Virus record (IMG/VR): IMGVR_UViG_3300042465_003982
Location: 1 to 61,117 of that record
Source of the DNA: a virus
Lineage: Duplodnaviria; Caudoviricetes
Length of the DNA stretch: 61,117 nt
Direction: 5' to 3' (one strand)
Shown here: one piece after another, positions 1,521 to 60,188 of the stretch
How positions within the stretch are numbered: position 1 is the stretch's first letter
Layout: every line of letters starts with the position of its first letter
Notes under the pieces: model-generated
Told to the model about the DNA's origin: nothing
The model's input: only the letters and a program-made list of their open reading frames with translations
Databases searched by the model: none
Program-made: the position numbers and the translations under genes

Positions 1521-1769
1521 ATGGAAAATTTTAAATCAGCAACAAATATTTCTATGGATGGATCTGGAAAGATTCCAGCAAAAAATAAAGCATGTATGCT
1601 TAACGCCGGAACAGCAACAAATCCAGGATTTACACTAGATTTTAGATCAAATGATGGGACTCTTAATTCTACCCATATAAAAATAGGATCAAATACATCA
1701 GCATTTATTCCTACTCGCGTATATGGAATAACAGGAATAGCCAACAGTTCAGCAATATTTTTTAACTAA
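1521..1769 (+). CDS. small late protein, probably virion (beta-rich)
   Basis: Follows late promoter; G-x-T motifs. Confidence 0.55.
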   Translation: MENFKSATNISMDGSGKIPAKNKACMLNAGTATNPGFTLDFRSNDGTLNSTHIKIGSNTSAFIPTRVYGITGIANSSAIFFN

Positions 1770-2083
1770 TGTATAGTTCTTTTCCCTATAATATGTCTTT
1801 TGACGATGTATATAAATCTGCAAAGGTTTTATACGAACTTGATTCAAATTCTGCTTTAAATTTATCATTTCCTTTAACTGTTGAAAATAATAAAGCATTT
1901 ATGTTTTTCTCAAATACATCTGATTCTGCTACTACATCAATAACAATCAATGAAAATATTACTATTAGATTTCCTAAAAATGATTCAGCTCCAAAATGTT
2001 TTGGATTTCCATTTGAACTAAAAAAAATAAATTCATGGAATACTGCATCAACTGGAAAATTAATAATAATTGGTTTTAATTAA
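1769..2083 (+). CDS. small late hypothetical protein
   Basis: TAATG-coupled on both sides. Confidence 0.55.
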   Translation: MYSSFPYNMSFDDVYKSAKVLYELDSNSALNLSFPLTVENNKAFMFFSNTSDSATTSITINENITIRFPKNDSAPKCFGFPFELKKINSWNTASTGKLIIIGFN

Positions 2084-2799
2084 TGCATTATTTGCGTAAA
2101 TTTTTACAAGAGTCATCAACCCTACAATATCATTCGGAACTGAATCCGAAGTTTTGGGTAAATATTTTTCTTAAAGATGAAGTAAGAAATCATTTAATAG
2201 AGATTTCAAAAGAATGGCTGAAGTTTACAGAAACACCAAGTTCTTTTGTTGACGATATTGTTCTTACTGGCGGAAATGCAAATTACAATTATACTGAAAA
2301 TTCTGATCTAGATGTTCATATAATTTTAAAACCAGAAAAATTAGATATTTGCAAAAAAGATCCAAATTATTATAAAGATAAAAAATTAATTTGGTCATTA
2401 ACACACGATATAACAATTTACAATACTCCAGTTGAAGTATATGCCCAGACTGAAAATGTTGAAATACCAAAAAATCAGGGTGTATATTCTCTAAAGAAAA
2501 ATAAATGGTTAGTTAAACCAGAAAATTTAAATTTAGATTTTTCAGCGGATTCTCTATTGGATAAAAAAATAGAAGATCACATTTATGAGATCGAACACGC
2601 ATTAAATAATACAAGCGATATCAAGGCAGCTGAAAAATTATTAAAAAGATATAAGAAACTAAGAGAATCTTCTATAGCAAAAGAAGGCGAATTCAGTCAA
2701 GATAATCTAATATTTAAAGAACTTAGAAATCGCGGTTATATCGATAAGATAAGAAAATTTATTATAACTATGACTGATAAAAAATTATCTTTAAGATAA
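2083..2799 (+). CDS. Pol-beta superfamily nucleotidyltransferase
   Basis: IVLTGGNANYNY..SDLDVH (hG[GS]..DxD) motif; likely third acidic residue in VEVY. Confidence 0.75.
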   Translation: MHYLRKFLQESSTLQYHSELNPKFWVNIFLKDEVRNHLIEISKEWLKFTETPSSFVDDIVLTGGNANYNYTENSDLDVHIILKPEKLDICKKDPNYYKDKKLIWSLTHDITIYNTPVEVYAQTENVEIPKNQGVYSLKKNKWLVKPENLNLDFSADSLLDKKIEDHIYEIEHALNNTSDIKAAEKLLKRYKKLRESSIAKEGEFSQDNLIFKELRNRGYIDKIRKFIITMTDKKLSLR

Positions 2800-4137
2800 G
2801 TAAATTATAGGTTGAATTGTTGGAAAATTAGCTGCAATATACTGACCAATAGTCACATTTGTTGTATCTACTACAGTAGTATTTACTGAAATCGTTCCGC
2901 CCATATTTGGTGTTGATAATGATTCGTAATAAAATGTTGATGGTATATCTGCTGTTACATTTAATGTAATATATGAATTTTTTTCACCAGGACTACCATT
3001 TACCGTATAAAAATTAGTTAATAAATTTTCTAGATCTGTGTTTCCCTGTACTTTAGTAAATACTAATTGTTCTCCAATGTTATTAGACTTATTACTAAAA
3101 TGTCCTTGATAGAATAAATATACAGTTCCTACAACTAATGTTATATTAGGAGATCTTTGTCCATTAACATAGAATTTTTTAACAGAAGAAGCTGTTTCTG
3201 TTTTTACATCTACTAAAGTATTGTACGATACGCCATTTGAAGGAAGAATACTATCTGTAACACCATCACATGGAATGTTTGCTGACCAGTTTACTATTAA
3301 ATTTGGATCATTTTCATTATATCGTCTTAAATATGCTTGTAGCTCGTTTTGATAATCAAAACAATTTAAATAAATTCCATTTTTATTATAAAGTTTTGCA
3401 GATCCATTAATATTTTTATCTACATTTAATAGCTCTACAGTTCCTCTACCTCTAGAATAAATTTCTAGTGTTGTTAATTTTCCAATTCTATTTTCAGAAA
3501 TAATAGAATCTTTTAAAAATATTATTTCTTCACCATCACTCGTTTCTTCTACTTTTTCTACTCTAAATCTATCAACATTTTGAGTAATACCAGAGTATAA
3601 AATTTGTATTAAATCATCTTCATATAAACCCAATTTTTTTATTGATTCTGCATTAGTTACAGATTTTATAATATTTGCAGTATCTCCAGTAAATCCTGAA
3701 TTTAATGATAATTGTAAAGAATCAACAAAATATTCTTTTTCATATCTAAATTCTCCAGTATTTAATTTTGTTGCGCTAATTTTTGTAGCAAAAATAATAT
3801 TATCACCAGTAGAACCATCATACTGATAAATACCGTCTAAATTAGATGTTATTCCGTCTTGTTCTTTTACATAATAACTATCGGAAATTGAAAATGTATT
3901 TCCATTTGTTATTCCTTGTAAAAAAAAATTTAAATATTCTAAATCATCATATGAATTAGTTTCTGTATAATCAATAATTAATTTATTAAAAGAATCGTAA
4001 AAATAAATTAATGGATTTGAATTTATTTGTTTACCTGATAATGTAAAGTCTCCATAAGAGCTTATTATATTGATTCCATAAGAATCTAAACTCTTTACGA
4101 GAGTAGTATATGAATCTTTTTCGTAATAATCTGCCAT
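2791..4137 (-). CDS. virion structural protein
   Basis: C-terminal ...PSTFYYES...NMGGTI domain resembles those of T4-like structural proteins; G-x-T rich. Confidence 0.55.
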   Translation of the reverse strand: MADYYEKDSYTTLVKSLDSYGINIISSYGDFTLSGKQINSNPLIYFYDSFNKLIIDYTETNSYDDLEYLNFFLQGITNGNTFSISDSYYVKEQDGITSNLDGIYQYDGSTGDNIIFATKISATKLNTGEFRYEKEYFVDSLQLSLNSGFTGDTANIIKSVTNAESIKKLGLYEDDLIQILYSGITQNVDRFRVEKVEETSDGEEIIFLKDSIISENRIGKLTTLEIYSRGRGTVELLNVDKNINGSAKLYNKNGIYLNCFDYQNELQAYLRRYNENDPNLIVNWSANIPCDGVTDSILPSNGVSYNTLVDVKTETASSVKKFYVNGQRSPNITLVVGTVYLFYQGHFSNKSNNIGEQLVFTKVQGNTDLENLLTNFYTVNGSPGEKNSYITLNVTADIPSTFYYESLSTPNMGGTISVNTTVVDTTNVTIGQYIAANFPTIQPIIYLS

Positions 4138-5198
4138 TATCTAGCTATAAAATATAAACTTTGTGCTATTGTTCCTGTTGAACCACTACTCTTAGCAAAT
4201 AATTTATTAGTATTTGAAATTTCTAAAAATATTTCATCTCCCTGAGCTAGAGGATAGCCATTAGTAAAACCTGATGATTCCCCAATAAATAAAAATTGAG
4301 TATTAGAGGCAAGAGATTTAATATTAACTCCGCGCTGGCATGTAAATCCTGGACTAAACTGAACAATAGATTGAGTTAAGCCTAATAATCCACTTATAAA
4401 CGATGTTGGTAAGGTAAAGGTATCTACTTTAACCTTAGCAGTACCGTCAGTTAAAAGAGTTTCAATTGTTGGAATATGAGCAGCAAAAGAGGCTCCAGAA
4501 ATTCCAGAATTTTTTATAGTATTAAGAAGTGATTCTAAAGTTACTCCAGTTATACTTACAGGAGAACCAGTCGAACCTTGTATGAATAGAGCAGTGGCGT
4601 TAGAGTTTGTTACGCCAACAGTAGAACTAATATTTGCTGTCAATGAAATTGGAGCACCTAATACTTGAACCATTAAGGCATTAGATCCCCCACCATTAGT
4701 TATCCCGGCCAGTAAATTGGTGCTAGGATCAAATAAACGAACATAAGTTCCACTAGTAGCACCATCTGGACCAACACCAATAGCCTTTATCTTGTAATTT
4801 CCGCTTGTTAAATTAGTAGAAAAAGCTTGTGTATCAGTATAAATGCTAGGTAATAATGTATTTCCTGCATTGTCTTGTGTAATGACTGCATTATTGAAAC
4901 CAGTACCATTTACTTTTAGTGCAGTTGTGCTATAATTCACTACCTGAATGGATCCTGCTGTTCCTCCACCAGTTACTGTAGCTCTGGTATTTAATGTAAC
5001 ACCAGTAGATGCTAAGTATGTTGGTAATGGGCTGCTAGATGAAACTCTGGTAGCATCTGATGTTCCTCCAAATACAACTTTAGTCAATTGAACATGCGAA
5101 GTAGCACCATAAATATCAATGACAAAATCAGTTGCAATAGTGGCGGTAAGACCACCAGCAATACCTACATTCAAATTGGGATCAGTATTATCAGGCAT
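4137..5198 (-). CDS. virion structural protein (Gly/Ser/Thr-rich)
   Basis: GGAG RBS; beta-rich composition; about 15 G-x-T motifs. Confidence 0.55.
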   Translation of the reverse strand: MPDNTDPNLNVGIAGGLTATIATDFVIDIYGATSHVQLTKVVFGGTSDATRVSSSSPLPTYLASTGVTLNTRATVTGGGTAGSIQVVNYSTTALKVNGTGFNNAVITQDNAGNTLLPSIYTDTQAFSTNLTSGNYKIKAIGVGPDGATSGTYVRLFDPSTNLLAGITNGGGSNALMVQVLGAPISLTANISSTVGVTNSNATALFIQGSTGSPVSITGVTLESLLNTIKNSGISGASFAAHIPTIETLLTDGTAKVKVDTFTLPTSFISGLLGLTQSIVQFSPGFTCQRGVNIKSLASNTQFLFIGESSGFTNGYPLAQGDEIFLEISNTNKLFAKSSGSTGTIAQSLYFIAR

Positions 5199-18476: not shown

Positions 18477-18477
18477 A

Positions 18478-44075: not shown

Positions 44076-44682
44076 AATACCAGTATATTGGATTAATCTA
44101 GACACAGCAACACAAAACGCAGAACGAATGACTAAAATGTTTGAGAAGCTAGGCTTCAAGAACACTATAAGAAAGTCTGCTAGGGTTATTCCATCTCCTC
44201 CTGAAACTATTCAGTCAAATAAACATTATGTTGGTTGTGCTCAATCACATATTGATATATTTGAACTTTCAGACCTAAAACCGCCATTTTTAATTCTTGA
44301 AGATGATGCTGAAGTCATTGAAGAGAATTTTAATCCTATATTAGAAGTTCCAGACGAAACAGATGCAGTGTATCTGGGAGTTAGTATAGGTAATAGAGGA
44401 TATACCTGTGTTCAACATAACAATGATTATAAAAGAATTGCCGGAATTTTAGCAACTCATGCTATCTTATACACAAGCGAAAGATATAGAAAAGAAGCAA
44501 TAGTTATGTCAAAAGATTTGGTTTACAATCGACATACTCCATTTGATGTTGGCTGTGCATATCTTCAAAGATATTTTCGAGTACTAACTCCAAATAAACC
44601 AGTTTTTTATCAAGCAGATGCTGCTGAGAGTGCAAATAAGTGGGAGTATCTTACTAAATGTGAATTGGAAATAAGACCATGA
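44056..44682 (+). CDS. glycosyltransferase, GT25-like
   Basis: YWINLD....R, GC..SH, LILEDDA, THAILY. Confidence 0.75.
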   Translation: MKIDLREIPVYWINLDTATQNAERMTKMFEKLGFKNTIRKSARVIPSPPETIQSNKHYVGCAQSHIDIFELSDLKPPFLILEDDAEVIEENFNPILEVPDETDAVYLGVSIGNRGYTCVQHNNDYKRIAGILATHAILYTSERYRKEAIVMSKDLVYNRHTPFDVGCAYLQRYFRVLTPNKPVFYQADAAESANKWEYLTKCELEIRP

Positions 44683-47004: not shown

Positions 47005-47674
47005 TATAGCAACTAATAAATATTCTTTATTTTTAAAATCACTATATCAAAGTGCAGATTATAATTTTTTTCCAGATGAAAATGTAAATTATGTTTTATT
47101 TACAAATAATAATGTAGATTTATCTTCTAAAAATAAAATAATAAAAATTCCAATAGAACATAAGCCTTGGCCATATATGACATTGTATCGTTATAAATTT
47201 TTTGATATGGCAAAAGATATCTTAAAAGAATATGATTATGTTTATTATTGTGATGTTGATATGTTATTTGTTAACAGAATTAAAGAAGATATTGTTTCAG
47301 ATTTAGTAGGAACACTTCACGGTGGATTTTATGATAAACCAAAACATACTTGGACATATGAAACTAATCCTAAATCAACAGCATATATTAAAAATGGTGA
47401 TGGGGATAATTATTATTGCGGCGGATTCAATGGAGGGAGCAGTCAAGAATTTTTAAAAATGTCTGCAATTATAAATGAAAATATAACAATAGATGAAAAA
47501 AATAATATAATTGCTAAATGGCATGATGAAAGTCATATAAATAAATATTTTTATATTAATAAACCAACAAAAATTTTATCAGCAGACTATTGTTGGCCAG
47601 ACACAAATCAAAAAAATGATAATGCAAAAATCATAGCATTAACAAAAGATAATACACTATTTAAATATGGATAA
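46985..47674 (+). CDS. GT6 (ABO-type alpha-1,3-Gal/GalNAc transferase family)
   Basis: IATNKY, WPY.TL.R, DVD, YYCGGFNGG, WHDESHINKY. Confidence 0.9.
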   Translation: MKIALINIATNKYSLFLKSLYQSADYNFFPDENVNYVLFTNNNVDLSSKNKIIKIPIEHKPWPYMTLYRYKFFDMAKDILKEYDYVYYCDVDMLFVNRIKEDIVSDLVGTLHGGFYDKPKHTWTYETNPKSTAYIKNGDGDNYYCGGFNGGSSQEFLKMSAIINENITIDEKNNIIAKWHDESHINKYFYINKPTKILSADYCWPDTNQKNDNAKIIALTKDNTLFKYG

Positions 47675-48338
47675 AATTTCTATAGTTATTCCGGCATATT
47701 TGCCAAATGAAAAATATATTTCTTTTTTGAATCAGGCAGTAGAGAGCTGCAAATGCCAAACAATAAAGCCATATAAAATTATAATTGTTTACAATGGGCC
47801 AGTAGTTCATAAAATAAATGGTGTTAAAAATATAAATTTAAAAATAAAAACAAGTGCATCTGTAGCTAGAAATATAGGAGCAGCAAATTGCCTTGATTCT
47901 GATTATTTTTGTTTTCTTGATGCAGATGATTATTTTCATCCAGAAAAAATTGAAAAACAAATTAAAACTTGTTTGGAAAATAATTTAGATTTTTGTTTTA
48001 CTGAAGCCATTAAGGTTGATGAAAACAATAAAGTGTTGGGTGAATTTACCTATAAGCAAAATGCAAGTAATACTGAGACAATAAAATCTATTTTACCCTT
48101 TGATAATGTTTTAGTAAATTCGTCTGTTATGATCAAGAAAGAATCTTTTCTAAAAGCCGGAATGTTTTGTCCAACGAATGAATACAAGATAGCTATTAAC
48201 GGCCCCCATAATAATGCAAATGGAGCAGTTTACGAAGATTATCTTTTATGGTATAATGCACTTCACAACAATTTTTCTTTTAGAAAAATACCAGAATTTT
48301 TAACATACTATAGAGTAAATACATCGGTGACTAGATGA
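47667..48338 (+). CDS. GT2 glycosyltransferase
   Basis: ISIVIPAY, ARN.G, FLDADD...P.K..KQ, EDY.LW, YR. Confidence 0.85.
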   Translation: MDKISIVIPAYLPNEKYISFLNQAVESCKCQTIKPYKIIIVYNGPVVHKINGVKNINLKIKTSASVARNIGAANCLDSDYFCFLDADDYFHPEKIEKQIKTCLENNLDFCFTEAIKVDENNKVLGEFTYKQNASNTETIKSILPFDNVLVNSSVMIKKESFLKAGMFCPTNEYKIAINGPHNNANGAVYEDYLLWYNALHNNFSFRKIPEFLTYYRVNTSVTR

Positions 48339-49165
48339 TAAATTTAGTATTTTCACAACATGAAAATAAAAATGGTCCAGGAAAAGTGGCAATTAACACT
48401 ATAAAGGGAATGCAACTTTTAGGCGTTCCCTTTACCGTTAATTCAGACAATTCATTTCCGTCAGTATTTCTCCAAGAGAATCCACATATGCGGTCAAAGA
48501 ACCTATCTAAGGATCTTGTTGGACCAAATATATGCGTCTTACCCCCAGACAATAGAGTAATAATGGAACAAAACTATAAGAAGTGTTTAGTTCCATCTTC
48601 TTGGGTATTTGATAAGTATTCTCGTTGGTTAAATCCTAGTAAATTGGCAATATGGGCAGTAGGGATTGATACGGATTTATTTGCTCCTTCTCAAAATAAA
48701 ACTATAGATTTTTTAGTGTATTATAAGAGAAGAGACTTAGACGATTTAAATGCAGTATGTAATTTCTTAAAATCCAAGAATCGAACATTTAAAATAGTTT
48801 CTTACGGAAATTATTCCGAGGAACAATTTAAGCAATGCATGAGCGAATGCAAATACGCATTTTTAATTGATAGGTGCGAGAGCCAAGGTATAGCCGTACA
48901 GGAAATGATGAGCTGTAATTTGCCCATATTGGTATGGGATGTCAGCAGATGGGCTGATAGGGGCGAGGAATATGCCTGTAAAGCCACATCAATACCATAT
49001 TTTACCGAACAGTGCGGAGTATATTTTTATGATAAGGCAAGCATGAATGCAGCATTTGATAATTTTATGCAGTATATTAACCATTTTGAGCCTAGAAAAT
49101 ATATTATAGATAACTTTAGTCTGAAACAAAAAGCAAACGATCTTGTGAGAATTTTATATGATTAA
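48335..49165 (+). CDS. GT-B (GT4-like) glycosyltransferase
   Basis: VPS.WV, GIDT..F.P, ESQGIA.QE.MS...PILV. Confidence 0.75.
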   Translation: MINLVFSQHENKNGPGKVAINTIKGMQLLGVPFTVNSDNSFPSVFLQENPHMRSKNLSKDLVGPNICVLPPDNRVIMEQNYKKCLVPSSWVFDKYSRWLNPSKLAIWAVGIDTDLFAPSQNKTIDFLVYYKRRDLDDLNAVCNFLKSKNRTFKIVSYGNYSEEQFKQCMSECKYAFLIDRCESQGIAVQEMMSCNLPILVWDVSRWADRGEEYACKATSIPYFTEQCGVYFYDKASMNAAFDNFMQYINHFEPRKYIIDNFSLKQKANDLVRILYD

Positions 49166-49889
49166 AAATGAGTGGAAAACAAATCTTAATTCGTTAATTA
49201 TAAATCCCTGGTTTTTACAAACACCCTTTATCAAGGGATTAATGTTTTCTAGCGACGATGGTATTTTTATAAATGAAATACGGTGGATAGAAAATAATTA
49301 TCCACAAAAGCTGGACTTGTTAAAAAATCCAAATTTATTTGGTAATCCAGATATCAAAATTTATAACGGGGAAAGATATAACCCAAATGATATCCATATG
49401 GCATATCATTTTTTAAAGTATTATAATTTCAATCCAATTCAATCACCCCTAAAGATATTTGAGTGGGGTGGTGGATATGGCAATCTGTATAAAATTATAA
49501 AGTTACTGTTTCCCGAGCTTGTAGAACGATATACCATAGTAGATTTGCCGCAGTGTCTAGAAATGCAAAAATACTATTTGCACAATTTAAATTTATTGGA
49601 TGATAAAATTACATTTTATTCATCCTTAAATTTACCAGATACTATACCCGATCACGATTTGTTCATATCCACTTGGGCAATTAGTGAAAGTCCGACTGAA
49701 TGTTTTGAGTATTTAAAAAATAAAAATTTTTATAGCTGTAATAAATTTTTAATAGCATTACATCAATGCGGGAATCATATTCCTTTCATGCAAGAATCTA
49801 CAGTTATATTCAATCATTTTATTTCTGCAAATACACACGCCGAAGAAATATCATTTATCCCCGGTAAGAATTATTATATTTTTAAATGA
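49158..49889 (+). CDS. putative sugar O-methyltransferase (SAM-dependent)
   Basis: IFEWGGGYG, Y.IVDLP....Q..YL, DLFIS.WAISE. Confidence 0.75.
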   Translation: MIKNEWKTNLNSLIINPWFLQTPFIKGLMFSSDDGIFINEIRWIENNYPQKLDLLKNPNLFGNPDIKIYNGERYNPNDIHMAYHFLKYYNFNPIQSPLKIFEWGGGYGNLYKIIKLLFPELVERYTIVDLPQCLEMQKYYLHNLNLLDDKITFYSSLNLPDTIPDHDLFISTWAISESPTECFEYLKNKNFYSCNKFLIALHQCGNHIPFMQESTVIFNHFISANTHAEEISFIPGKNYYIFK

Positions 49890-50575
49890 AAAATTTACTA
49901 TTAACATTTAGTTCTTTTCATGTATCAAGCGATAAAAATTTTGAACGCGAAAATGAGTATTTTATTTGCTACGATCAATTATTAAGATTAATGCCAAAAT
50001 CTTTTGATTTAGTTTTTATTGACAATACTACGAAAAAACTAGAAGACATAAAAAATAATAATTTAAAAAATTTATTAGCTTCTAAAAATTTTATTTTTTA
50101 TGATTTTAATTTAGGTCAAAACAATAAAGGTCTTGGCGAATTGGAAATGCTATTTAGGGCAAGAAGTGCTATAAATTTTTCTAACTATAAGAATGTTTCT
50201 TATTTGACTGGAAGAAGAATAATCACATGTCCTTATATTTTTGAAAAAACTGATGCTATGAGTAAAGAGGCATTACTTTCAAATCCACCTTTGGTAAGAG
50301 TATGCGATGGTCATGTTTATGAATCAGACAAAACTTCGTATAATGATATGTTCTTTTCAATGAGATCTGATATAATAAATAAATACATTGACTTTTCTGA
50401 AAAATTTTTAAATGTAAATAATAGAGAAATAGGCTCAGAACAAATTTTATATAAATTTGTGAATGAACATCAAATATCTTATGAATGGTTAGAATTTTTG
50501 GGAATGATAAGAAACGACTGGAATCAATACGCTAAAACATACACTAGAAATTACGAAAATTTTCAATATTGTTAA
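49886..50575 (+). CDS. hypothetical protein, possibly glycan-related
   Basis: Within island; NKG.GE and LTGR motifs. Confidence 0.5.
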   Translation: MKNLLLTFSSFHVSSDKNFERENEYFICYDQLLRLMPKSFDLVFIDNTTKKLEDIKNNNLKNLLASKNFIFYDFNLGQNNKGLGELEMLFRARSAINFSNYKNVSYLTGRRIITCPYIFEKTDAMSKEALLSNPPLVRVCDGHVYESDKTSYNDMFFSMRSDIINKYIDFSEKFLNVNNREIGSEQILYKFVNEHQISYEWLEFLGMIRNDWNQYAKTYTRNYENFQYC

Positions 50576-50589
50576 TAATGGAGAATAAA

Positions 50590-51699
50590 ATGGATATTAG
50601 AGAAAATGTACTACCGTGCCTCAGACCTTATGGCGGAAAAGAAGAAATTGAAGCTCTAACTCAAGTTATTGAGAGTGGTTGGTGGGGTAAGGGCGCGAAA
50701 GTGGCAGAGTTTGAAAAGTCTTTTGCAGAGATGGTCGGAGCCAAATATGCAGTAGCAGTAACAAGTGCTACGCACGGCCAAGACCTTGTTCTCAAGGCTA
50801 TGGGCATAAAAGATTGTGATATTATAAACCCTACTATTTCATTCTTGACAACAGCAGTGGTTCCACTTTGGAATAACTGTACTACTAATATTGTAGATGT
50901 CGATAGACGAGCACTTAACATAGATCCAGACGATGTGAAAAAGCATTTAAAAAAGAACACAAAAGCGATAATTGCCGTGAACATGGCAGGGGTTCCAGCC
51001 CCAATAGCAGATATTAGAAAGTTTTATGATGGATTTATTTTGGAAGATTGCGCTCATAGCTGCTATACCCCAGGCGCAGGAATGCAAGGAGATGTGGCTG
51101 TATGGTCATTCCAGGCAGTAAAGACAATGCCTTGCGGAGATGGTGGCATGATTACCACCAATGATAAAGAACTATATGAAAAATTAGTTCCTATGACATG
51201 GTTAGGTATTAGTAGCACTTTCTCAAGAGTCAAGGACGGATTGACTGGCAAGCCAGGATATTCTTGGGACTATACAGTTAATCTACTAGGCCAAAAGTGC
51301 TATATGATCGATCTAACAGCAGCGATTGCAATTGAGCAGATGAAGAAGCTAAATGGCCATTTGGAAAGAAGACGGCATATTGCAAGAAGATATAACAGCG
51401 AACTTGGTCATCTTATAGAAATACCAGAATGGACTGAAACTGTTCAATACTATTGCGCTAGAGTACAAGCAGAACACAGAGATTCGTTGATGGATTATCT
51501 TTCTAGCAAAAAGATTCACACTTCAGTACACTTTAAACCTCTCCATAAGTATGAAGTTACTAAGCAAGATAGATCTTACCCTGTAGCAGATACTGAGTGG
51601 TTAAAGCTTATATCTCTTCCAGTTCATCCCGCTATGACTGAAGAAGACATAGATTATGTAATCTACTGGGTTAAAGAATACTTTAACAAAAGTTTATAA
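50590..51699 (+). CDS. DegT/DnrJ/EryC1/StrS PLP-dependent sugar aminotransferase
   Basis: FE..FA...GAKYAVAV.SAT, EDCAH, SFQAVKTMPCGDGGM, LSLP.HP. Confidence 0.92.
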   Translation: MDIRENVLPCLRPYGGKEEIEALTQVIESGWWGKGAKVAEFEKSFAEMVGAKYAVAVTSATHGQDLVLKAMGIKDCDIINPTISFLTTAVVPLWNNCTTNIVDVDRRALNIDPDDVKKHLKKNTKAIIAVNMAGVPAPIADIRKFYDGFILEDCAHSCYTPGAGMQGDVAVWSFQAVKTMPCGDGGMITTNDKELYEKLVPMTWLGISSTFSRVKDGLTGKPGYSWDYTVNLLGQKCYMIDLTAAIAIEQMKKLNGHLERRRHIARRYNSELGHLIEIPEWTETVQYYCARVQAEHRDSLMDYLSSKKIHTSVHFKPLHKYEVTKQDRSYPVADTEWLKLISLPVHPAMTEEDIDYVIYWVKEYFNKSL

Positions 51700-51704
51700 A
51701 AAAT

Positions 51705-52241
51705 ATGATTAATGATTTTTTTAAATCTTTAGAAATAGATATCCAACCACAAGAATATAGATGGACCAGAGGAATGGTTGGAGAAGATTTAAATTTTTTT
51801 AAATCTTGCATTGATGTATTCAAAACAAATAATATTTTTAGTCTTCTAGACATAGGTACTGGACCAGGAACTTTAGTAAAGATGTGCTTGGACTCTAATA
51901 TAAATGCCTATGGAATAGATCCAGTAATAGATCAAAAAACACCAAATTTATATGTCGGGACTATATCTACTGCAATTAAAAATGAAAATTTGTTAGGTGA
52001 TTACAAATTTTCATGCATTTCTTGTGTAAATTTTCTTCACGGGGCAAACCACAATGAAAGTGAATTAATTTCTTTATTCTCTATGATGAAAAGAAGAGCA
52101 GATTTCATTATGATCACAGAACCTAATATCGGACAAGATGCAAAAAATATTTGTATGTCTAATTTAGAATGTGTTCATAAATTCGACCGTTCTCATGGTG
52201 GAGCATATCACAGTTTGTATAAAATTTATAATAAAATTTAA
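51705..52241 (+). CDS. class I SAM-dependent methyltransferase
   Basis: LLDIGTGPG motif I, GIDP. Confidence 0.75.
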   Translation: MINDFFKSLEIDIQPQEYRWTRGMVGEDLNFFKSCIDVFKTNNIFSLLDIGTGPGTLVKMCLDSNINAYGIDPVIDQKTPNLYVGTISTAIKNENLLGDYKFSCISCVNFLHGANHNESELISLFSMMKRRADFIMITEPNIGQDAKNICMSNLECVHKFDRSHGGAYHSLYKIYNKI

Positions 52242-52242
52242 T

Positions 52243-53094
52243 ATGATTTATAATATAGAAAATACTGTAAATTTAGATGATCATCCTTGTTTTAAAAGTG
52301 AAAAAACATATCCCAATTTTCAACCAGAATTAAATTTTTTTAAAACTTTTTTGATCGATTCTGTAAATCAGAATAAATCCTTTACTTTTTATAAGTTCGG
52401 AGATGGTGATTATTATTTTTTAAAGGCTGATTCTGTTGGTAGCGCAGCTCCCGGAAAAAGAGCATTAAGTAAACCATATTCTCAAATAAATCATTCAGAA
52501 TTTGTAAATGGATCTAAGTTGTGTGATATTTACACATGTGAAATATACCCAGAAAATAGAGAAAGATTTCGTAGAGTAATTTCTCGTAATATTGATTATC
52601 CGGCAGAATATTGTTATGGTCTAGTTTCTAATAAATGGCTATTAAAACAATTTGCTGGGAAAATTGGTTTAATCGGTGGAAATAATAAAATTAATATCAT
52701 AAAAGAATTAATGAAATATCCGCAATATCAAGAATATCTTGGTATTGAGCAATTCAATGATTATATTTCTATTCCAGAAAAATTTGCATGTGATGATATC
52801 GCAGCAACCGAACATATGGTAGGAGAACAACTTAAGACTTCTTCCTCTAAAATATTTTTAATGGGTATTGGACATGTTAAATCCGCACTCACACATAGAT
52901 TACCAAAGTATTCTAATGCTATTTTTTTGGATGTCGGTTCTTCTATAGATGCTTTAGCAGGAATAATTGACATAAGAAGACCATATTTTGGTGATTGGAC
53001 AAATTATCAAATCAAAAATCCTAATCTTTACTCAGGAGTTGATTATCTTCAATACAAAAGAGAAGGAAAGCACATTTTCTTGGAGAATTTATGA
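52243..53094 (+). CDS. GT-D fold-like (DUF1792-like) glycosyltransferase
   Basis: FYKFGDGD, L.G.G..K, LDVGS..DA. Confidence 0.55.
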   Translation: MIYNIENTVNLDDHPCFKSEKTYPNFQPELNFFKTFLIDSVNQNKSFTFYKFGDGDYYFLKADSVGSAAPGKRALSKPYSQINHSEFVNGSKLCDIYTCEIYPENRERFRRVISRNIDYPAEYCYGLVSNKWLLKQFAGKIGLIGGNNKINIIKELMKYPQYQEYLGIEQFNDYISIPEKFACDDIAATEHMVGEQLKTSSSKIFLMGIGHVKSALTHRLPKYSNAIFLDVGSSIDALAGIIDIRRPYFGDWTNYQIKNPNLYSGVDYLQYKREGKHIFLENL

Positions 53095-53819
53095 AAGGTA
53101 TTATTTTAGCTGGCGGTACAGGTTCGCGTTTGGCTCCGCTAACAATAGCCGTAAATAAGCATTTGTTGCCCGTTGGAAACAAACCAATGATTCTGCATTC
53201 AGTAGAAAAATTAGTGGATGCGGGAATTCAAGAAATAATGATTGTCACTACTCCAGAACAATTGCATAATTTTTCTTGTCTTTTAAAAAGCGGAAAAGAA
53301 TATAAATGCGATATAACCTATAAAGTTCAAGACGAGGCGGGGGGAGTAGGTCAGGCTTTAGGTATATGCAGATCATTCGTTGGTAAAGACAATTGCACCG
53401 TAATTCTCGGTGATAATATTTTTGAAGATTCCATAAAAACTGATGTTGAAACATTTAAAGAAGATTGCAAATTATTCTTTAAAAAGGTTCCAGATGGGCA
53501 TAGGTACGGAGTCGCAGTATGGAAACAGGAAGAAAATTATCCAGCATTTTATCTGGATGCTATTTTAGAGAAACCAAATAATGTAACAAAAGCAGATGCT
53601 GTTGTTGGAATTTATATGTACAGTAGTTCTGTGTTTGATATTATAAAGGATATAAAACCCTCCTATAGAAATGAAATTGAAATAACATCAGTAAATAATG
53701 TTTATGTCAAAAACCAAAAAGAATATACTTTGACATCCAGAACATTAGATGGTTGGTGGACTGATGCTGGAACACTAGAAAGCTATAAAAGAGCAAATGA
53801 ATATTCTTTCGGACAATGA
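53091..53819 (+). CDS. rmlA: glucose-1-phosphate thymidylyltransferase
   Basis: KGIILAGG.GSRL.PLT...NKHLLPV..KPMI, LGDN, EIT.VN, WTDAGT. Confidence 0.93.
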   Translation: MKGIILAGGTGSRLAPLTIAVNKHLLPVGNKPMILHSVEKLVDAGIQEIMIVTTPEQLHNFSCLLKSGKEYKCDITYKVQDEAGGVGQALGICRSFVGKDNCTVILGDNIFEDSIKTDVETFKEDCKLFFKKVPDGHRYGVAVWKQEENYPAFYLDAILEKPNNVTKADAVVGIYMYSSSVFDIIKDIKPSYRNEIEITSVNNVYVKNQKEYTLTSRTLDGWWTDAGTLESYKRANEYSFGQ

Positions 53820-54300
53820 ACCCACTTTAATACCATCTTCAGTCTACATGGACGAAAGAGGATTTTTCATAGAACTTTTCCGTGAAAACAACTATACTCT
53901 AAATTTTGTACAGGATAATTTTTCTTATTCAAAGAAAAATGTTTTTCGTGGACTGCATCTTCAGAGAAATAATCCCCAAGGCAAATTAGTTACCTGTTTA
54001 AGTGGGAAAATATTAGATATAGTAGTCAATTGCAATAAACGAGATAAAAATTTTGGAAAATTGTATAAATTTTTTCTAGATAAAGAAAAACAATTATATG
54101 TTCCTCCCAATTATGCTCATGGTTTTTATTGTATAACAGATGAAGCATTTGTGCATTATAAATGCACTGATTATTACGATCCAATTAGCGAATTGACTAT
54201 TTCTGTAAAAGATTTTGAAAAAGATCTTCCTGAAATAAATTTTTCTTCTGCTATAATATCACAAAAAGATAAGCAAGGAATATCATTAAATGAATATTAA
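53797..54300 (+). CDS. rmlC: dTDP-4-dehydrorhamnose 3,5-epimerase
   Basis: DERGFF.E, FVQDN.S.S...V.RGLH.Q, YVP..YAHGF, YKC. Confidence 0.92.
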   Translation: MNILSDNEPTLIPSSVYMDERGFFIELFRENNYTLNFVQDNFSYSKKNVFRGLHLQRNNPQGKLVTCLSGKILDIVVNCNKRDKNFGKLYKFFLDKEKQLYVPPNYAHGFYCITDEAFVHYKCTDYYDPISELTISVKDFEKDLPEINFSSAIISQKDKQGISLNEY

Positions 54301-55222
54301 ATCTGGATCTACAGTAGTAATTACAGGATGCGCTGGCTTTATAGGAAGTCATGTAACAGAACATTTATTGAGATGTGGCTATAAGGTCATAGGCATTGAT
54401 AAAATGACATATGCCGGAAAGCTTTTAAACATGAAAGATTTCATCCTAAACGATGATTTTTCTTTCTATATGAAAGATATTAATATATTCGATGAAATGG
54501 AGAAAGTAATCAATGAGTATGATATTTCTGCAATAATTAATTGTGCAGCCGAAACTCATGTTGATAATTCCATAGTTGATTGCACTAATTTTTTACAGAC
54601 CAACATAATGGGCGTTAAAAATTTGTTAGAGATCTGTAAAATAAAAAATATACCATTGTTACATTTTTCTACTGATGAAGTTTATGGAGATGCAATTTGC
54701 ACTTCTTTCATAGAAGAATCTCCATTAAAACCAAAGAATCCATATTCGGCATCAAAAGCAGCAGCCGATCATTTAATTGCATCTTATAACAATACTTACA
54801 AAATAAAGTATTTGATTGTAAGGCCATCCAATAATTTTGGTCCAAGACAACATAAAGAAAAATTTATACCAACAATTTTACGCAAACTAAAAGCTAATGA
54901 GAAAATTCCAATTTATGGTAACGGAAAACAAAAAAGAGAATGGACTTATGTAAAAGATACTGCCAAAGCAGTAGAATTGCTCTTGAATAAGGGTACTGTA
55001 AATGAAATTTATAACATTTCATCCAATCATGAAGAGGTCAATATCAATGTTGTTTCTTTGATATGCAAAAAGCTTGATATTGATTTTAATAATGCCATAG
55101 AGTATGTTCCAGATCGTTTAGGACATGATTTTAGATATTCTGTAAATTGCAATAAAATAAAATCTCTTGGTTTTAGTCCAGATAACTCTTTTGAACAAAA
55201 TCTTGATGATACTCTAATATGA
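54290..55222 (+). CDS. rmlB: dTDP-glucose 4,6-dehydratase
   Basis: TG.AGFIG, DKMTYAG, AAETHVD.SI, STDEVYG, YSASK, DR.GHD.RY. Confidence 0.93.
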   Translation: MNIKSGSTVVITGCAGFIGSHVTEHLLRCGYKVIGIDKMTYAGKLLNMKDFILNDDFSFYMKDINIFDEMEKVINEYDISAIINCAAETHVDNSIVDCTNFLQTNIMGVKNLLEICKIKNIPLLHFSTDEVYGDAICTSFIEESPLKPKNPYSASKAAADHLIASYNNTYKIKYLIVRPSNNFGPRQHKEKFIPTILRKLKANEKIPIYGNGKQKREWTYVKDTAKAVELLLNKGTVNEIYNISSNHEEVNINVVSLICKKLDIDFNNAIEYVPDRLGHDFRYSVNCNKIKSLGFSPDNSFEQNLDDTLI

Positions 55223-55276: not shown

Positions 55277-55285
55277 AGATACAAT

Positions 55286-56503
55286 ATGAAGCCTACAATT
55301 ACACTATGCATGATCGTGAAGAATGAAACACATGTCATTCTTCGTTGCCTTGAGTCAATTTACAAGTACATAGACCGATACGACATCACTGATACTGGTT
55401 CTACTGATGGAACTCAGGACATGATTCGTAAGTTCTTTGCGGAGAAAAATATCCCCGGAGAAATTTACCAGTCCGACTGGAAGGGGTTCGGGGATCACGG
55501 AGACAAGATAGGATCTCGCACAGAGGCATTCCAGAACGCCAAGGGTAAGGCAGATTACGCTTGGGTAATTGATGCCGATGATCAAGTTGTTGGAAATTTT
55601 ATTTTTCCAGAAAAACCAGAAGCAGATGGTTATACTCTTCAATTTAAAAGAGGAGAATTCTCTTGGTGGCGAACACAAATTTTTAAGAATAATAGAGACT
55701 GGAGATATGTGGGTGTTCTTCACGAATATCCAGATTCAGAACCAAAGCCATATAGAATTGAAAAAATAATAGGAGATTATTCTATAGATGCTAGAACAGA
55801 AGGTGCTAGAAATATAGGAATTGATCCTAAAGAAAAATATTCTAGAGATGCTGAATTATTAGAAAAGGCATTATTAGATGAACCTACTAATATAAGATAT
55901 CAATTTTATTTGGCTCAAAGTTATTTTGATTCTCATCAATGGGAAAAGGCAATTAATGCATATGCGAAACGAGCAGAAATGGGTGGTTGGGAAGAGGAAA
56001 TTTTCTTCTCAGTATATCGTATTGCAATTTGCAAAGTGTTCCTCCAACATCCCTGGCCGGAAATTTATGATATGTTTATGAAGTCTTATGAAGTAAGACC
56101 AATTAGAGCAGAACCTCTCTATCAGCTTGCCAGATTGCACAGAATGCACAATAGACCAAGATCAGCGTATCAATATGCTAAGATGGCAATCGAAATCCCA
56201 AAACCAAAGGATGATACACTGTTTGTCGAGGACATTGCATATGATTGGGGTATTCTAGATGAATTAGGAGCAGTTGCTCATACAGTAGGAAAATTCCATT
56301 TAGGAATGCAAGTTTGCCATAAACTTTTGTGCGAAAATAAATTTCCACCAGAACACAGACAAAGAATCGAAAATAATTTTAAATCATATCAACAAATTGT
56401 AACAAAAATTCAACACGATAGAGGTGTTGAAGAGATAATGCTTAAACAAAAAGAAAAAGAGCTTAAAAAGATAAATAAGAAGAAGCAAAAGGCTAGTAAA
56501 TGA
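55286..56503 (+). CDS. GT2 glycosyltransferase with TPR repeats (protein/peptide-glycosyltransferase-type architecture)
   Basis: LCMIVKNE....RCLES, DTGSTDGT, IDAD, VLHE; TPR-like FYLAQSY..A...Y, P.RAEPLY.LA. Confidence 0.88.
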   Translation: MKPTITLCMIVKNETHVILRCLESIYKYIDRYDITDTGSTDGTQDMIRKFFAEKNIPGEIYQSDWKGFGDHGDKIGSRTEAFQNAKGKADYAWVIDADDQVVGNFIFPEKPEADGYTLQFKRGEFSWWRTQIFKNNRDWRYVGVLHEYPDSEPKPYRIEKIIGDYSIDARTEGARNIGIDPKEKYSRDAELLEKALLDEPTNIRYQFYLAQSYFDSHQWEKAINAYAKRAEMGGWEEEIFFSVYRIAICKVFLQHPWPEIYDMFMKSYEVRPIRAEPLYQLARLHRMHNRPRSAYQYAKMAIEIPKPKDDTLFVEDIAYDWGILDELGAVAHTVGKFHLGMQVCHKLLCENKFPPEHRQRIENNFKSYQQIVTKIQHDRGVEEIMLKQKEKELKKINKKKQKASK

Positions 56504-56925
56504 CACCACAAAAAGATCTTGAAGCGATAAAAGGTAACAATTTTAATCTTCTTCTTACATATTTTGACGCAAATGATGCAGCCATTTCTGCAACATTTCA
56601 AAATATAGATTTCAAGATCTTTAAAAGTGTTCCAACTTCACAAAATTTAGTCTTCCAATCTGATTTTGTTGGTGTAACATATTTAATAACTGGGTTAACT
56701 GGTCTTTCACATGATTCTGGAATAAGTTTCGTCAGAATCAATAAAGATGAAAATTTGGGAAATTTAACTGGTGGAATTTATTTTGAATTCACATCAAATA
56801 TAATGGGCTATCTTCCAGCAGGAAGACATTTTTATACAGTTGAATTAAATAAAGGAAGTACCTTCTCAGATATGCTTCTGAGAGGAAGATTTGAGATTTT
56901 GAATGAAGATGGTGGTTTGATATGA
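56500..56925 (+). CDS. putative Ig-like virion adaptor protein
   Basis: G.NF.L..TY.D, LPAG...Y.VEL......LLRG.FEI pattern; precedes the fibre gene. Confidence 0.5.
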   Translation: MTPQKDLEAIKGNNFNLLLTYFDANDAAISATFQNIDFKIFKSVPTSQNLVFQSDFVGVTYLITGLTGLSHDSGISFVRINKDENLGNLTGGIYFEFTSNIMGYLPAGRHFYTVELNKGSTFSDMLLRGRFEILNEDGGLI

Positions 56926-57047
56926 AAGTAAAGGTTAAAGAATTTAATAAAACAGCAACTATACTTTCAAAAACACTGACCAATAAAGGTATAGTGAATA
57001 AAATTAAGATAAAGAAAACCACAAATACTGAAATTTATTATCGATAA
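56922..57047 (+). CDS. small basic ORF (41 aa)
   Basis: ATGA overlap; MKVKVKEFNK...; GGTGG upstream. Confidence 0.4.
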   Translation: MKVKVKEFNKTATILSKTLTNKGIVNKIKIKKTTNTEIYYR

Positions 57048-57095
57048 TGAACTTCTCAATCGGACAAAAAATTGTTCTCAAAAAATATATGACAT

Positions 57096-60000
57096 ATGCC
57101 AATTAGTTTCCCAAGCAATCCTTCAGTCGGTGCTATCTACGATTTCGGTGGTATTCATTACATTTACAATGGTGATGGGTGGGTCAATAAGAGCATTTAT
57201 GGTATTTCTGCCGGAAGCGGAATAAGTTTTGCAAATTATAATGGTACAGGACCAGTGGTTATTTCAGTTGTTGGTGGATCTGTGGGCGCAACAGGAGCAA
57301 CTGGTGCTACTGGTGCTACTGGTGCAACTGGTGCTACTGGTGCAACTGGTGCTACAGGTGCAACGGGAGCCACAGGTTCTACAGGAGCAACTGGTGCTGA
57401 TGGTGCTACAGGAGCCGGAGGAGCATTAGGATATTGGGGTAGTTTCTGGTCAACACAAGACCAACAAGCAGCAAGCACAACTGTTGCTTATCCAATTACC
57501 TACAACAATACAGATCCTAATTCTAATGGCGTAAGTATAGTTTCTAATTCACGAATTACATTTACTTATCCTGGCGTATATAACATTGAGTTTTCTGCAC
57601 AGGCTGATAGAGTTTCTGCATCTGGTACAGACACTATTGATATATGGTTCCGTAAAAACGGAACAGATATTGCAGATAGTAACACCATTGTAACTGTTTC
57701 GGGTAGTGCAGCAGCAGCTAAAACCGTTGCTGCTTGGAACTACATGTTGCAAGTTAATGCTAATGATTATGTTGAATTGATGTGGCGAACATCTGATACT
57801 CGTTTAGAATTTATAGCAGACCCAGCAGGAACAAGTCCAACTAGACCAGCAATTCCATCAGTAATTCTTTCAGCACATCAGGTCATGTATACTCAACTAG
57901 GGCCAACTGGTCCTACTGGACCGATGCCTACAGATTATGTTTCTAGTTTCAATGGTAAGACTGGTGCGGTTCAAGGTGTTTCGTCTATTAATGGAAATAC
58001 TGGAGCAATTACAAATGTTGCCTTTACCAACACCGCTCAGTCATTTAGTGGATTGCAACAATTTACACAGGGAATTTCTGGATCTGGTGGAGTTACATTC
58101 AATTCAGATGTAAATATAAACGACAATAACAGCCTAGTTGTTGCAACCATAATAAATGCGGGAGGAAAGACTCAGTTAGATATTGATAACAGAGCATCTT
58201 CTAGAGTTGCTATTGGGGACTATGACGGCGGTGGTAATAGCACTCATATATTTTTAAGAGATAGTGTAAGTAATTTACAAATATCAAATCCATATGGAGA
58301 AATAGCGATAGGTGATCCTAATGGAATTGATGCGGGAAATATCATTTCTTATTCATCTCCAGATGCTACTCTATACGGAAACAATAGTAATATTGATGGA
58401 TTTGCTAATATATTTGCTTCATATGTTTCTGCTAGTCAGGGGATTTCTGCTTCTGGCGGTGTTACATTCAGCGGCAATATATCTGTAAATACGGCAAGTT
58501 TAGGTAGAACTGGTACAAATAATTTAATATTCGGTGTTAACGCCGGAAAAGCAATAACAACAGGATCATCGAATACTATTATTGGAGATGACTCAGGTGA
58601 ATTAATTTCCTCTGGGACAAATAATACTTCTCTTGGATATGAAGCACTAACAGCATTGACAACAGGAATTGCAAATACCGCAGTTGGTCTGTGGGCTTTG
58701 CGTAACGGAACAACAGGAAGTAACAATACTGCTATTGGCTCTAGAGCACTAAGATCAAATACTACTGGTAATGATAACACGGCAATAGGTTTTTATGCTT
58801 TAGAATTAAATCAAACTGGAAGTGCTAACATAGCAATTGGTGCATTTGCATTATCTGAAGGTGCTACTTCTGCTGCCAACAATATTGCAATTGGTTATGC
58901 CAGCTTGCTTAAAAATACCACAGGATCACAAAATGTTGCCATTGGCAGAGATGCAGTAAGAAACAACACAACTGCATCCGATAATGTCGGCATTGGGTAT
59001 CAATCTTTGTATAGTGCCACTTCTGGTGGAGCAAATACTGGTGTTGGTACAAATACAGGATATCGTTTAACGACAGGAACAAATAATACTGCCGTTGGGT
59101 ATCAAGCATTGTTTGGTAGTGCTTCTGTTACTAGTCAGGCAAATACCGCCGTTGGATACAATTCAATGGTAAGCAATACCAGCGGATCATATAATTCTGG
59201 TATTGGTTTAGGATCTCTTTATAGTCTGACTTCAGGGCAACAAAATACTGCGGTTGGAACAGAGTCTTTATATGCTATTACAACCACTAGCAATAATACA
59301 GCTGTCGGACAATTAGCATTGAGATATGCAACTCAGGGATCTAATAACACTGCTATTGGTATTCTTGCAGGAGCATATAAAACAGCATCAAATACAAACC
59401 TTACTGCAATAGGAAATGATAATGTTTATATTGGAACTGAGGCCAGAGCATCTGGAGATAGCATAAACAATGAAATTGTTATTGGATCAAAGGCACTTGG
59501 TCTTGGAGCAAACACAGCAGTAATTGGTGCTACAGCACAAGCATCCGCAACAATTTATGGAACTCTCAATCTTCCAGGAGGAAAAATTGCTCTTGGTATA
59601 ACTGGTATTAATGGAACTTCTACCCCCGGATGCTTAGAGTTTGATGGAAATGTTCTTTACGCAGGGACAACCGGAGGTAGAGGAGTAATTGAAGCACCGC
59701 ATATTTCATATGCTACAAGCGCAGTATCTTTGAGCGGGGTTACAACTTATCAAAATATATTTTCTACTCCTGCCGATGTAATTACTTTAGCAGCTAATAC
59801 ATCTTATATAGTTGAGGGAAACATAATAGTACAAAGCGGAACTACTACACACACAACGGCGATACAGTTAACCGGAGGTGTAGCCGCAACCCCACCAACA
59901 TTTAGATTGCATATATTATCTACAGCAGCAGCCGTTGGTACAGTAGCTAGAGCACAAGATACTGTATATTTCGAAACAAGTGGTGGTGTCATAAATGCTA

Positions 60001-60188
60001 CATCTGGATCAGCAAGAGTTTTCATTCTTTTAAGAGGATCTATAGAAACTGTTTCTTCTGTAACTATTACTCCTCAAGTAGCTTTTAGCGCAAACCCAGG
60101 CGGTACAAATCAAATTCAAGATGGATCGTGGATTAAATTCACTCCAGTTGGAACAAACACAATGACATTTGTTGGTCCGTGGTCGTAA
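57096..60188 (+). CDS. fibre/spike protein: collagen-like stalk, C1q/BclA-C-like domain, ~14-aa beta-roll repeats
   Basis: (GAT)n; [16 protein letters not shown]...DYVELMW; repeated N(T/I)A(I/V)G..(A/S)L. Confidence 0.8.
57285..57419 (+). repeat. collagen-like G-A-T triplet repeat (15 triplets)
   Basis: 9-bp GGN-GCN-ACN units, in frame. Confidence 0.95.
58515..59500 (+). repeat. ~14-aa NTAxG beta-roll repeats
   Basis: NTAVG, NTAIG, NIAIG, NVAIG recur about every 14 residues. Confidence 0.8.

Follow-up and report, generated by a model that had tools for sequence, protein, structure and literature searches.

The stretch of DNA considered here, IMG/VR record IMGVR_UViG_3300042465_003982 at its full length of 61,117 bases (the window), is part of the genome of an uncultured, T4-like freshwater myovirus. 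It encodes a putative protein O-glycosyltransferase, TPR-GT2, in which a glycosyltransferase domain of the GT-A type is joined to tetratricopeptide repeats (TPR). The gene lies upstream of that of a collagen-like tail fibre, and glycosylation of this fibre is likely. A structural module at about 6.4-34.7 kb is followed by gp32 and by genes for recombination and replication; an island of sugar and glycosyltransferase genes occupies 44.0-55.2 kb, and after it come TPR-GT2, an open reading frame (ORF) of 141 residues and the fibre of 1030 residues. The capsid protein is 56-57% identical to its counterparts in cultured cyano- and pelagimyophages, and the stretch 54000-60200 is contained in 24 lake-water metagenome runs from 24 studies, none of the 24 being recorded as RNA. 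An initial annotation, made from the letters alone, had noted that the tripeptide G-x-T is frequent in virion proteins, and had proposed that it is a sequon to which TPR-GT2 attaches a first sugar, the island then building a glycan coat over the whole particle. The genes at issue are the following, with counts of G-x-T set against those expected from composition-shuffled controls:

44056..55222, plus strand: sugar island, 15 ORFs, with GT25-, GT11-, GT10-, GT6- and GT2-like transferases (Pfam, NCBIfam)
55286..56503, plus strand: TPR-GT2, putative protein O-glycosyltransferase of 405 residues, N-terminal GT-A domain, C-terminal TPR repeats
56500..56925, plus strand: ORF of 141 residues whose start overlaps the TPR-GT2 stop; 3 G-x-T against 1.1
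57047..57106, plus strand: 19-codon remnant of a "classical" collagen gene of about 395 residues, overlapping the fibre start in another frame
57096..60188, plus strand: fibre of 1030 residues, with an N-terminal collagen-like stalk, then a globular part, then a repeat region
57276..57446, plus strand: collagen-like run of the fibre (residues 61-117); of its 19 Gly-x-y triplets, 13 are G-x-T, mostly GAT

TPR-GT2 and Known Protein Glycosyltransferases

TPR-GT2 matches the Pfam model Glycos_transf_2 (PF00535) over residues 7-103 at 5.5e-11 (43.1 bits, cut-off 23.3). It contains the motifs DTGSTDGT at residue 36, DADD at residue 96 and HEY at residue 146, and the nucleotide-binding motif (DTGSTDGT) and the DxD motif (DADD) are invariant across 11 sequences. 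Single Pfam TPR models fall just under their cut-offs, and a profile of the family matches designed and consensus TPR proteins over positions 183-244 (1.5e-12 to 8.5e-4). Apart from these designed proteins, the only relatives in PDB are GmaR (1.1e-9 with the single sequence, 9.2e-12 with the profile), SunS (2.4e-4 and, over 230 residues, 3.1e-7) and a SunS-like enzyme. These similarities point to an enzyme of the protein- or peptide-glycosylating kind, as the initial annotation had supposed. The family is large, with 3,520 proteins at an E value of at most 1e-5, of which the best 120 are metagenome-derived and carry no informative names, and at least 55 related loci are present in IMG/VR. The C-terminus of the family is a variable, lysine-rich tail of about 25-60 residues.

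GmaR, the flagellin O-linked N-acetylglucosamine (O-GlcNAc) transferase of Listeria monocytogenes (PDB 22ao), is the best relative of solved structure and is likewise built of a GT-A domain and TPR repeats. The similarity covers roughly the first 100 residues, where the nucleotide-binding and DxD motifs lie, and was shown for the transferase domain only; moreover, the substrate of GmaR is flagellin and not collagen, and its anti-repressor role has no counterpart here. The match to the SunS/ThuS S-/O-glycosyltransferases (PDB 7msp, 7msn, 7msk) extends from the GT-A domain into the helical repeats, but no glycocin-type peptide is encoded near TPR-GT2. The NCBIfam model of the SunS family is matched at 1.7e-9 with 37 bits, far under its cut-off of 350, and TPR-GT2 is therefore not a SunS equivalent.

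The closest parallel in build and gene position is SgtA of Clostridioides difficile, a protein of 358 residues with a GT-A domain at residues 1-260 and TPR repeats at 262-358 (PMC7157674). Its gene is located directly upstream of bclA3, and the enzyme adds beta-O-GlcNAc in vitro to Thr of GPT-repeat peptides, with Ser accepted too (PMC7157674). As in this pair, the window combines GT-A and TPR in one soluble protein (358 versus 405 residues) upstream of a gene with Gly-x-Thr collagen-like repeats. Unlike BclA3, which is a spore exosporium protein, the collagen-like product here is a phage tail fibre; its repeats are GAT rather than GPT, and an island of 15 dTDP-sugar and transferase genes lies upstream. 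By analogy, the enzyme and collagen-fibre unit is likely a phage version of SgtA-BclA3. Our literature search returned no paper that pairs SgtA-like enzymes with collagen fibres of phages, and none that describes a G-x-T motif in their virions.

The Collagen-like Fibre and Its Neighborhood

The fibre begins 593 bases past the TPR-GT2 stop. Its PHROG matches are to virion structural, tail spike and collagen-like minor tail families, the C-terminal parts matching virion, tail-spike and fibre PHROGs, and it scores 26.7 bits with Pfam Collagen, under the cut-off of 27.2. The (GAT)n run that the initial annotation had pointed out in this fibre is present as described; its 19 uninterrupted triplets are short compared with the 100-335 of bacterial proteins. 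With four lake metagenome runs added together, contig depth is about 8-30 and jumps to 180-545 over the (GAT)n coding run at 57276-57446; such repeat DNA is common to the Gly-x-Thr collagen genes of many other organisms and phages. Residues about 480-800 form a long series of short N-N-T-A-[IV]-G repeats, rich in Asn-x-Thr, which we take to recall adhesin head repeats.

The association of the enzyme with collagen-like fibres extends well beyond the window. Of 48 distinct enzyme genes examined, 30 are followed by 3 kb or more of sequence, and in 28 of these 30 phage loci a collagen run of at least 6 triplets is located downstream of the enzyme. At least 6 G-x-T triplets are found downstream in 19 of the 30, and G-x-T dominates in 9. 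With a dUTPase-like gene as the anchor, three states of the site can be distinguished: a full cassette, a minimal cassette and an empty site. The minimal cassettes (loci L226 and L232) consist of regA, the enzyme, a small ORF and collagen, with no sugar island, and at the empty sites (L251, L272 and L275) regA adjoins the dUTPase-like gene, and island, enzyme and fibres are all missing; L279 resembles the empty sites, with no regA homologue recognised there. In further contigs with G-x-T-rich fibre clusters, the enzyme lies farther upstream in 4 of 5. The association is also found outside the T4-like set. The unrelated jumbo phage Tunturi_5 encodes an enzyme homologue that is 36-38% identical, and its sole large collagen protein, which bears (GAT)n, is located 3.7 kb away. 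Likewise, of 79 bacterial loci with relatives of the enzyme, mostly from spore-formers, 17 have collagen runs and 14 have G-x-T-dominated collagen within 6 kb, a proportion for which a formal base rate was not set; these 79 do not include the C. difficile locus.

The 141-residue ORF that overlaps the enzyme gene is a conserved companion. A homologue is present downstream of the enzyme in 24 of the 30 loci, directly adjoining it in 19, and 28 homologues together contain 138 G-x-T against 48.9 expected, located at conserved columns (26/28 and 21/28). No match was obtained for it in Pfam, PHROG or NCBIfam, and a protein-atlas lead, BppU_N, is found on 16% of the members of one cluster; it is possibly a small fibre-anchor domain. 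In the search for T4-type late promoters (see below), GATAAATA was located 30 bases ahead of it. Downstream of the companion, the 19-codon remnant at 57047-57106 matches the N-termini of the collagen proteins of loci L003 and L009, and a contig from an independent assembly (run X2) covers 55000-57347 and thereby bridges it. The full-length protein of about 395 residues is of the GPQ/GEK type, with repeats almost without Thr, and is present in many enzyme loci.

Fibre glycosylation is thus likely, because TPR-GT2 resembles protein glycosyltransferases, shares the build and gene position of SgtA, and has collagen fibres downstream in nearly all of the eligible loci. The (GAT)n run is a plausible acceptor, and the most likely one.

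The Variable Sugar Island

In addition to its transferases, the island encodes methyltransferase-like ORFs, a DegT-type aminotransferase, RmlA, an RmlC-like enzyme and RmlB, which would fit a route to a dTDP-linked amino-dideoxy sugar. Anthrose of BclA is a 4,6-dideoxy-4-amino sugar (PMC6222408), and the likeness of the predicted island product to it is an analogy, not a result. Island content differs completely between relatives, five related genomes giving weak matches only, and TPR-GT2 is kept. A simple hydropathy scan found no hydrophobic 19-residue stretch of at least 1.6, and hence no membrane segment, in the 17 ORFs at 44056-56925, and no initiating phosphoglycosyl-transferase, flippase, polymerase or ABC exporter was found among the Pfam and NCBIfam families of the island. 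In print, such islands have been read as devoted to host-surface or DNA modification (PMC7029224, PMC12801897).

An Excess of G-x-T in Structural Proteins

The enrichment of G-x-T in the outer virion proteins of the window is real. With ORFs divided into structural and non-structural by PHROG matches and gene position, 28 structural ORFs together contain 83 G-x-T against 42.8 expected (z 6.1), and the motif is the most over-represented of 1,600 spaced pairs (400 residue pairs at gaps of 0-3) in these proteins. Non-structural ORFs contain 25 against 22.4, so the contrast with shuffled controls holds for structural proteins only. Related patterns in the structural ORFs are at expectation (T-x-G 40 against 42.8, G-x-x-T 35 against 42.7, G-x-S 48 against 50.1); in the same pair scan, Ser-Gly reaches 72 against 50.2 and Thr-Gly is at expectation (42 against 43.0). 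The excess persists when collagen runs of at least 4 triplets are masked (102 against 58.8 in 30 structural ORFs), and for isolated motifs, defined as those with no Gly at -3 or +3 (76 against 49.4, z 4.2, with 0 of 300 shuffles as high). A DNA-level origin is ruled out, because the word GGNNNNAC is enriched in frame only, with 83 occurrences against 5 and 10 in the two remaining frames. Nor does the excess follow GC content, and an all-against-all BLAST of the window ORFs gave only the sheath pair and the tube pair, arguing against a domain shared among the enriched proteins. The proteins in question are:

2791..4137, minus strand: ORF of 448 residues, 10 G-x-T against 2.9-3.0; virion role presumed
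4137..5198, minus strand: ORF of 353 residues, the strongest excess, 15 against 5.8; virion role presumed
16605..19188, plus strand: two baseplate-region ORFs of 623 residues (11 against 4.3) and 236 residues (7 against 1.9-2.0)
20618..21556, plus strand: gp14-like neck protein, 7 G-x-T, 6 of them at residues 187-286 (GLT, GST, GTT, GIT, GET, GFT)
24691..25869, plus strand: short sheath paralogue, 7 against 2.7; Gly- and Thr-rich
32727..34121, plus strand: major capsid protein, at expectation, 4 against 3.0

The manual counts of 15, 11, 7 and 6 given by the initial annotation are reproduced exactly, and the further sites that it listed in the sheath, ORF 2791-4137, ORF 56500 and the capsid loop are present; the hub has a single motif. 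Its statement that G-x-T is nearly absent from gp32 and gp44 does not hold, both being at expectation (1 against 0.6 and 1 against 0.9) and not depleted, and its label "gp8" for ORF 16605-18476 finds no PHROG, Pfam or PDB match. In 20,000 whole-protein shuffles, p values were 1.5e-4 for ORF 4137-5198, 3.5e-4 for ORF 2791-4137, 1.4e-3 for ORF 16605-18476, 1.2e-3 for ORF 18478-19188, 5.3e-3 for gp14 and 1.2e-2 for the sheath, and shuffling inside 20-residue blocks gave similar values. Bonferroni correction for 71 ORFs leaves just two of them, ORFs 4137-5198 and 2791-4137, below 0.05.

Position and Context of the Motifs

Dispersed motifs are found mostly in lineage-specific, added parts of tail and neck proteins. 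In the gp14-like protein, the Pfam domain T4_neck-protein covers residues 3-172, and 6 of the 7 motifs lie past residue 175, outside this conserved domain. Similarly, 6 of the 7 motifs of the short sheath paralogue are within its N-terminal 206 residues, which do not align with T4 gp18, residues 207-389 aligning with gp18 464-644. Domains of T4 gp18 other than the C-terminal one face outward. The second sheath copy is not Gly- and Thr-rich like the first, and has no motif (0.8 expected). Two tandem sheath paralogues of 392 and 424 residues, with C-terminal parts 29% identical, are encoded at 24691-28202, together with two tandem tube paralogues of 171 and 176 residues that are 40% identical. 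In the capsid protein, GGT (residue 137) and GLT (residue 154) are in or beside a stretch without alignment to T4 gp23. Inner and conserved proteins (portal, tube paralogues, gp3-, gp48-, gp26-, gp4- and gp13-like proteins and the tube cap) have no excess when six genomes are taken together (46 against 39.6).

The same tendency is pronounced in the related genome G004, which encodes three sheath-like ORFs, one of them of 1460 residues, and whose giant proteins are largely composed of such additions:

L109:14654-18724: G004 gp15-like protein, 1356 residues, 26 G-x-T against 8.9; about 225 residues match a known family, the remainder being add-ons without a family
L110:356-4738: G004 sheath protein, 1460 residues, 38 against 14.9; about 90 residues match a known family, the remainder again being add-ons

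Family searches with the enriched window ORFs and with the add-ons of the relatives gave no match. For ORFs 2791-4137 and 4137-5198 this covers PHROG, Pfam and NCBIfam, and the protein atlas gave only clusters of viral hypothetical proteins. Homologues of ORF 4137-5198 at about 70% identity keep 13-17 motifs; in distant homologues the sites lie mostly off shared columns, 34 of 49 columns being private to one genome, on alignments at 25-35% identity that are unreliable. An AlphaFold2 model of this protein from a 16-row alignment has a mean pLDDT of 38 and a pTM of 0.27, too poor for judging exposure. A 238-residue ORF at 2083-2799 adjoins these two most G-x-T-rich ORFs; it has a weak match to a nucleotidyltransferase domain (PF01909, 23.2 bits, cut-off 21) and also matches a PHROG of unknown function.

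The sequence around the motif is constrained. Four genomes have in common the flank pattern [S/T/D]-G-[I/V/A/L]-T-[G/F/A], which avoids Glu and Lys; S, T or D precedes the Gly at 1.4-1.7 times background. A hydrophobic middle residue is present in 45.3% of 667 isolated motifs, compared with 10.8% of the 241 collagen triplets and a background of 32.4%, and the beta-strand-like context of isolated motifs, judged from their sequence, thus differs from that of collagen repeats. In a strand, the polar-Gly-hydrophobic-Thr-hydrophobic pattern would turn the Thr away from the hydrophobic face. General protein O-glycosylation in Bacteroidota uses the sequon D-[S/T]-[A/I/L/V/M/T].

Relation of the Excess to the Enzyme

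If G-x-T were the sequon of TPR-GT2, its enrichment would be expected to track the enzyme across related phages. Ratios of observed to expected G-x-T in structural proteins were compared between nine enzyme-bearing and five enzyme-lacking genomes (in G001, where gp32 lies across contig ends, the structural ranges were set by hand). With all motifs counted and long collagen masked, the enzyme-bearing genomes are at about 1.27-2.05 (1.74, 1.48, 1.30, 1.80, 2.03, 1.45, 1.55, 1.58 and 1.66) and the enzyme-lacking ones at 1.11, 1.12, 1.10, 0.97 and 1.33. With isolated motifs, the ranges overlap, 1.03-1.81 (1.54, 1.14, 1.03, 1.55, 1.81, 1.20, 1.33, 1.30 and 1.21) versus 1.02-1.37 (1.21, 1.15, 1.18, 1.02 and, in DSL-LC03, 1.37), and the rank-sum comparison is not significant (U = 31.5 of 45). 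Three of the nine enzyme-bearing genomes are clearly over the enzyme-lacking baseline of 1.0-1.4; the window, G003 and G004 have isolated-motif ratios of 1.54-1.81, and G001 (1.14), G002 (1.03) and G005 (1.20) are at the baseline. Non-structural proteins have ratios of about 0.9-1.15 everywhere except in a six-ORF Melnitz set (8 against 4.5). A sixth enzyme-lacking contig, from the distant G006, has a structural sum of 54 against 59.4. In Tunturi_5, which has the enzyme, overall G-x-T is at 515 against 472 (1.09), with no excess and no large enriched protein.

In a tree of five core proteins, a single branch parts enzyme-bearing from enzyme-lacking T4-like phages, and their co-occurrence with the excess, even in the all-motif contrast, therefore counts as one event. 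No enzyme-lacking genome was established inside the enzyme-bearing clade; G008 is without the cassette, but amounts to 20.6 kb only, its marker ORF matched only itself, and all five long contigs near it carry the enzyme. No window gene is confined to the strongly enriched genomes. The G-x-T excess is not tightly tied to the enzyme.

A Probable Fibre-Glycosylation Cassette

From the family resemblance of the enzyme, the gene order and the motif statistics we infer an acceptor, a kind of sugar and a role for the island, in a reading that we consider somewhat better than an even chance: a fibre-glycosylation cassette, combined with a mainly structural origin of the dispersed motifs. TPR-GT2 would be a soluble enzyme of protein O-glycosylation, of one kind with SgtA, GmaR and SunS, that most likely adds the first sugar to Thr of the collagen-like (GAT)n stalk, its TPR part gripping the extended acceptor chain, and the variable island upstream may provide unusual dTDP-sugars and add further residues. 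The dispersed motifs would mainly be turn-plus-strand starts in the beta-rich surface domains of this lineage, although some of their Thr residues may be glycosylated as well. This structural component is favored because of the fixed columns in the ORF 56500 family, the hydrophobic middle residue, the constant flanks and the lack of an excess in inner proteins.

Several observations weigh against this reading. The parallel between SgtA and TPR-GT2 is one of build and gene position. In 9 of the 30 phage loci the collagen neighbors have fewer than 6 G-x-T triplets (0 to 4), so that a strict link between the enzyme and G-x-T is not required; in two huge phages with homologues 27-30% identical, no collagen run was found within 15 kb. 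Neither the enzyme nor the fibre has a T4-type late promoter (TATAAATA, at most one mismatch) in the 60 bases ahead of it. As to the structural component, the sites of ORF 4137 turn over between orthologues and their counts stay high, and the five enzyme-lacking phages average only about 1.2 for isolated motifs. Furthermore, the globular domains of BclA are O-glycosylated too, according to PMC12357932.

The whole-virion proposal, in which the dispersed motif is a selected sequon, TPR-GT2 starts the glycan and the enzymes of the island extend it into a coat on neck, sheath, baseplate and fibres, has several observations in its favor. The excess requires Gly at -2 and Thr, not Ser; it is seen in structural proteins only, is absent from inner ones, and is concentrated in the lineage-specific outer parts of gp14 and the sheath and in the G004 add-ons; sites turn over while counts persist, and all-motif ratios are higher in the nine enzyme-bearing genomes than in the five without (0.97-1.33). 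Moreover, SgtA acts on short unfolded peptides (PMC7157674). Nevertheless, the presence or absence of the enzyme is one branch of the tree, the isolated excess is at baseline in three enzyme-bearing genomes and reaches 1.37 in one that lacks the enzyme, Tunturi_5 has the enzyme and no excess, no gene co-varies with the excess, non-structural proteins are no more depleted of the motif than controls, and the middle residue of the isolated motifs is unlike that of a collagen acceptor. What remains of the interpretation in the initial annotation is the kind of enzyme and a plausible (GAT)n acceptor in the fibre, and not the virion-wide sequon coat, which we regard as unlikely. A narrower form, in which the window, G003, G004 and their near relatives possess a cytoplasmic general O-glycosylation that recognizes a minimal G-x-T sequon on nascent chains, the outer virion proteins having gathered such sequons by turnover and the strain-variable island yielding a strain-specific coat on fibres, the periphery of the baseplate, the neck and the sheath add-ons, appears similarly doubtful.

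Two further explanations dispense with glycosylation of the phage proteins. The island may remodel the lipopolysaccharide O-chain or the cell surface of the host during infection, for instance blocking co-infection; GT25, GT11, GT10 and GT6 transferases typically serve in the synthesis of lipo-oligosaccharides, lipopolysaccharide cores are also built by soluble transferases, and the published reading of such genes cited above is of this kind. The hydropathy scan of the island and its neighbors, however, gave no membrane segment, and the family searches gave no flippase, polymerase or initiating phosphoglycosyl-transferase, while the sole conserved enzyme resembles protein glycosyltransferases and travels with collagen fibres even where the sugar island is missing; we give this explanation a minor but appreciable chance. 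Alternatively, no modification would be involved, the excess being a by-product of the shuffling of fibre modules and of short, degenerate collagen-like pieces between outer proteins, and TPR-GT2 serving an unrelated acceptor. Consistent with this notion, the excess in G001, G002 and G005 vanishes when only isolated motifs are counted, and the fibre clusters are recombinationally active, as seen from the 57047-57106 remnant and from their varied contents. Against it, isolated motifs alone are in excess 1.54-1.81-fold in the window, G003 and G004, BLAST reveals no domain common to the enriched proteins, and the adjacency of enzyme and collagen recurs in phages and bacteria; we consider this explanation quite improbable.

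Implications for Phage Virions

In the literature surveyed here, experimentally demonstrated glycosylation of phage virions is known only from mycobacteriophages, whose transferases glycosylate their own virion proteins (Freeman et al. 2023, as cited in PMC12619734). The window would resemble these phages in encoding candidate transferases for its own virion. In mycobacteriophages the glycans are located at the C-termini of capsid and tail-tube subunits, and the passage that cites this work mentions no TPR-GT2, collagen fibre or G-x-T (PMC12619734). To this field the window contributes a measured virion-wide motif excess that is not tightly linked to the enzyme, and the G-x-T statistic provides a concrete, cheap list of candidate threonines. 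Should a general sequon system be present after all, phages would possess an equivalent of the capsid glycosylation of chloroviruses, and one in which the sequon is defined. If the fibre or the virion is glycosylated by phage enzymes, the "lipopolysaccharide-like" islands of abundant aquatic T4-like phages would need to be re-read as virion-dressing machinery, and the swapping of islands between strains would be a means of varying the particle surface.

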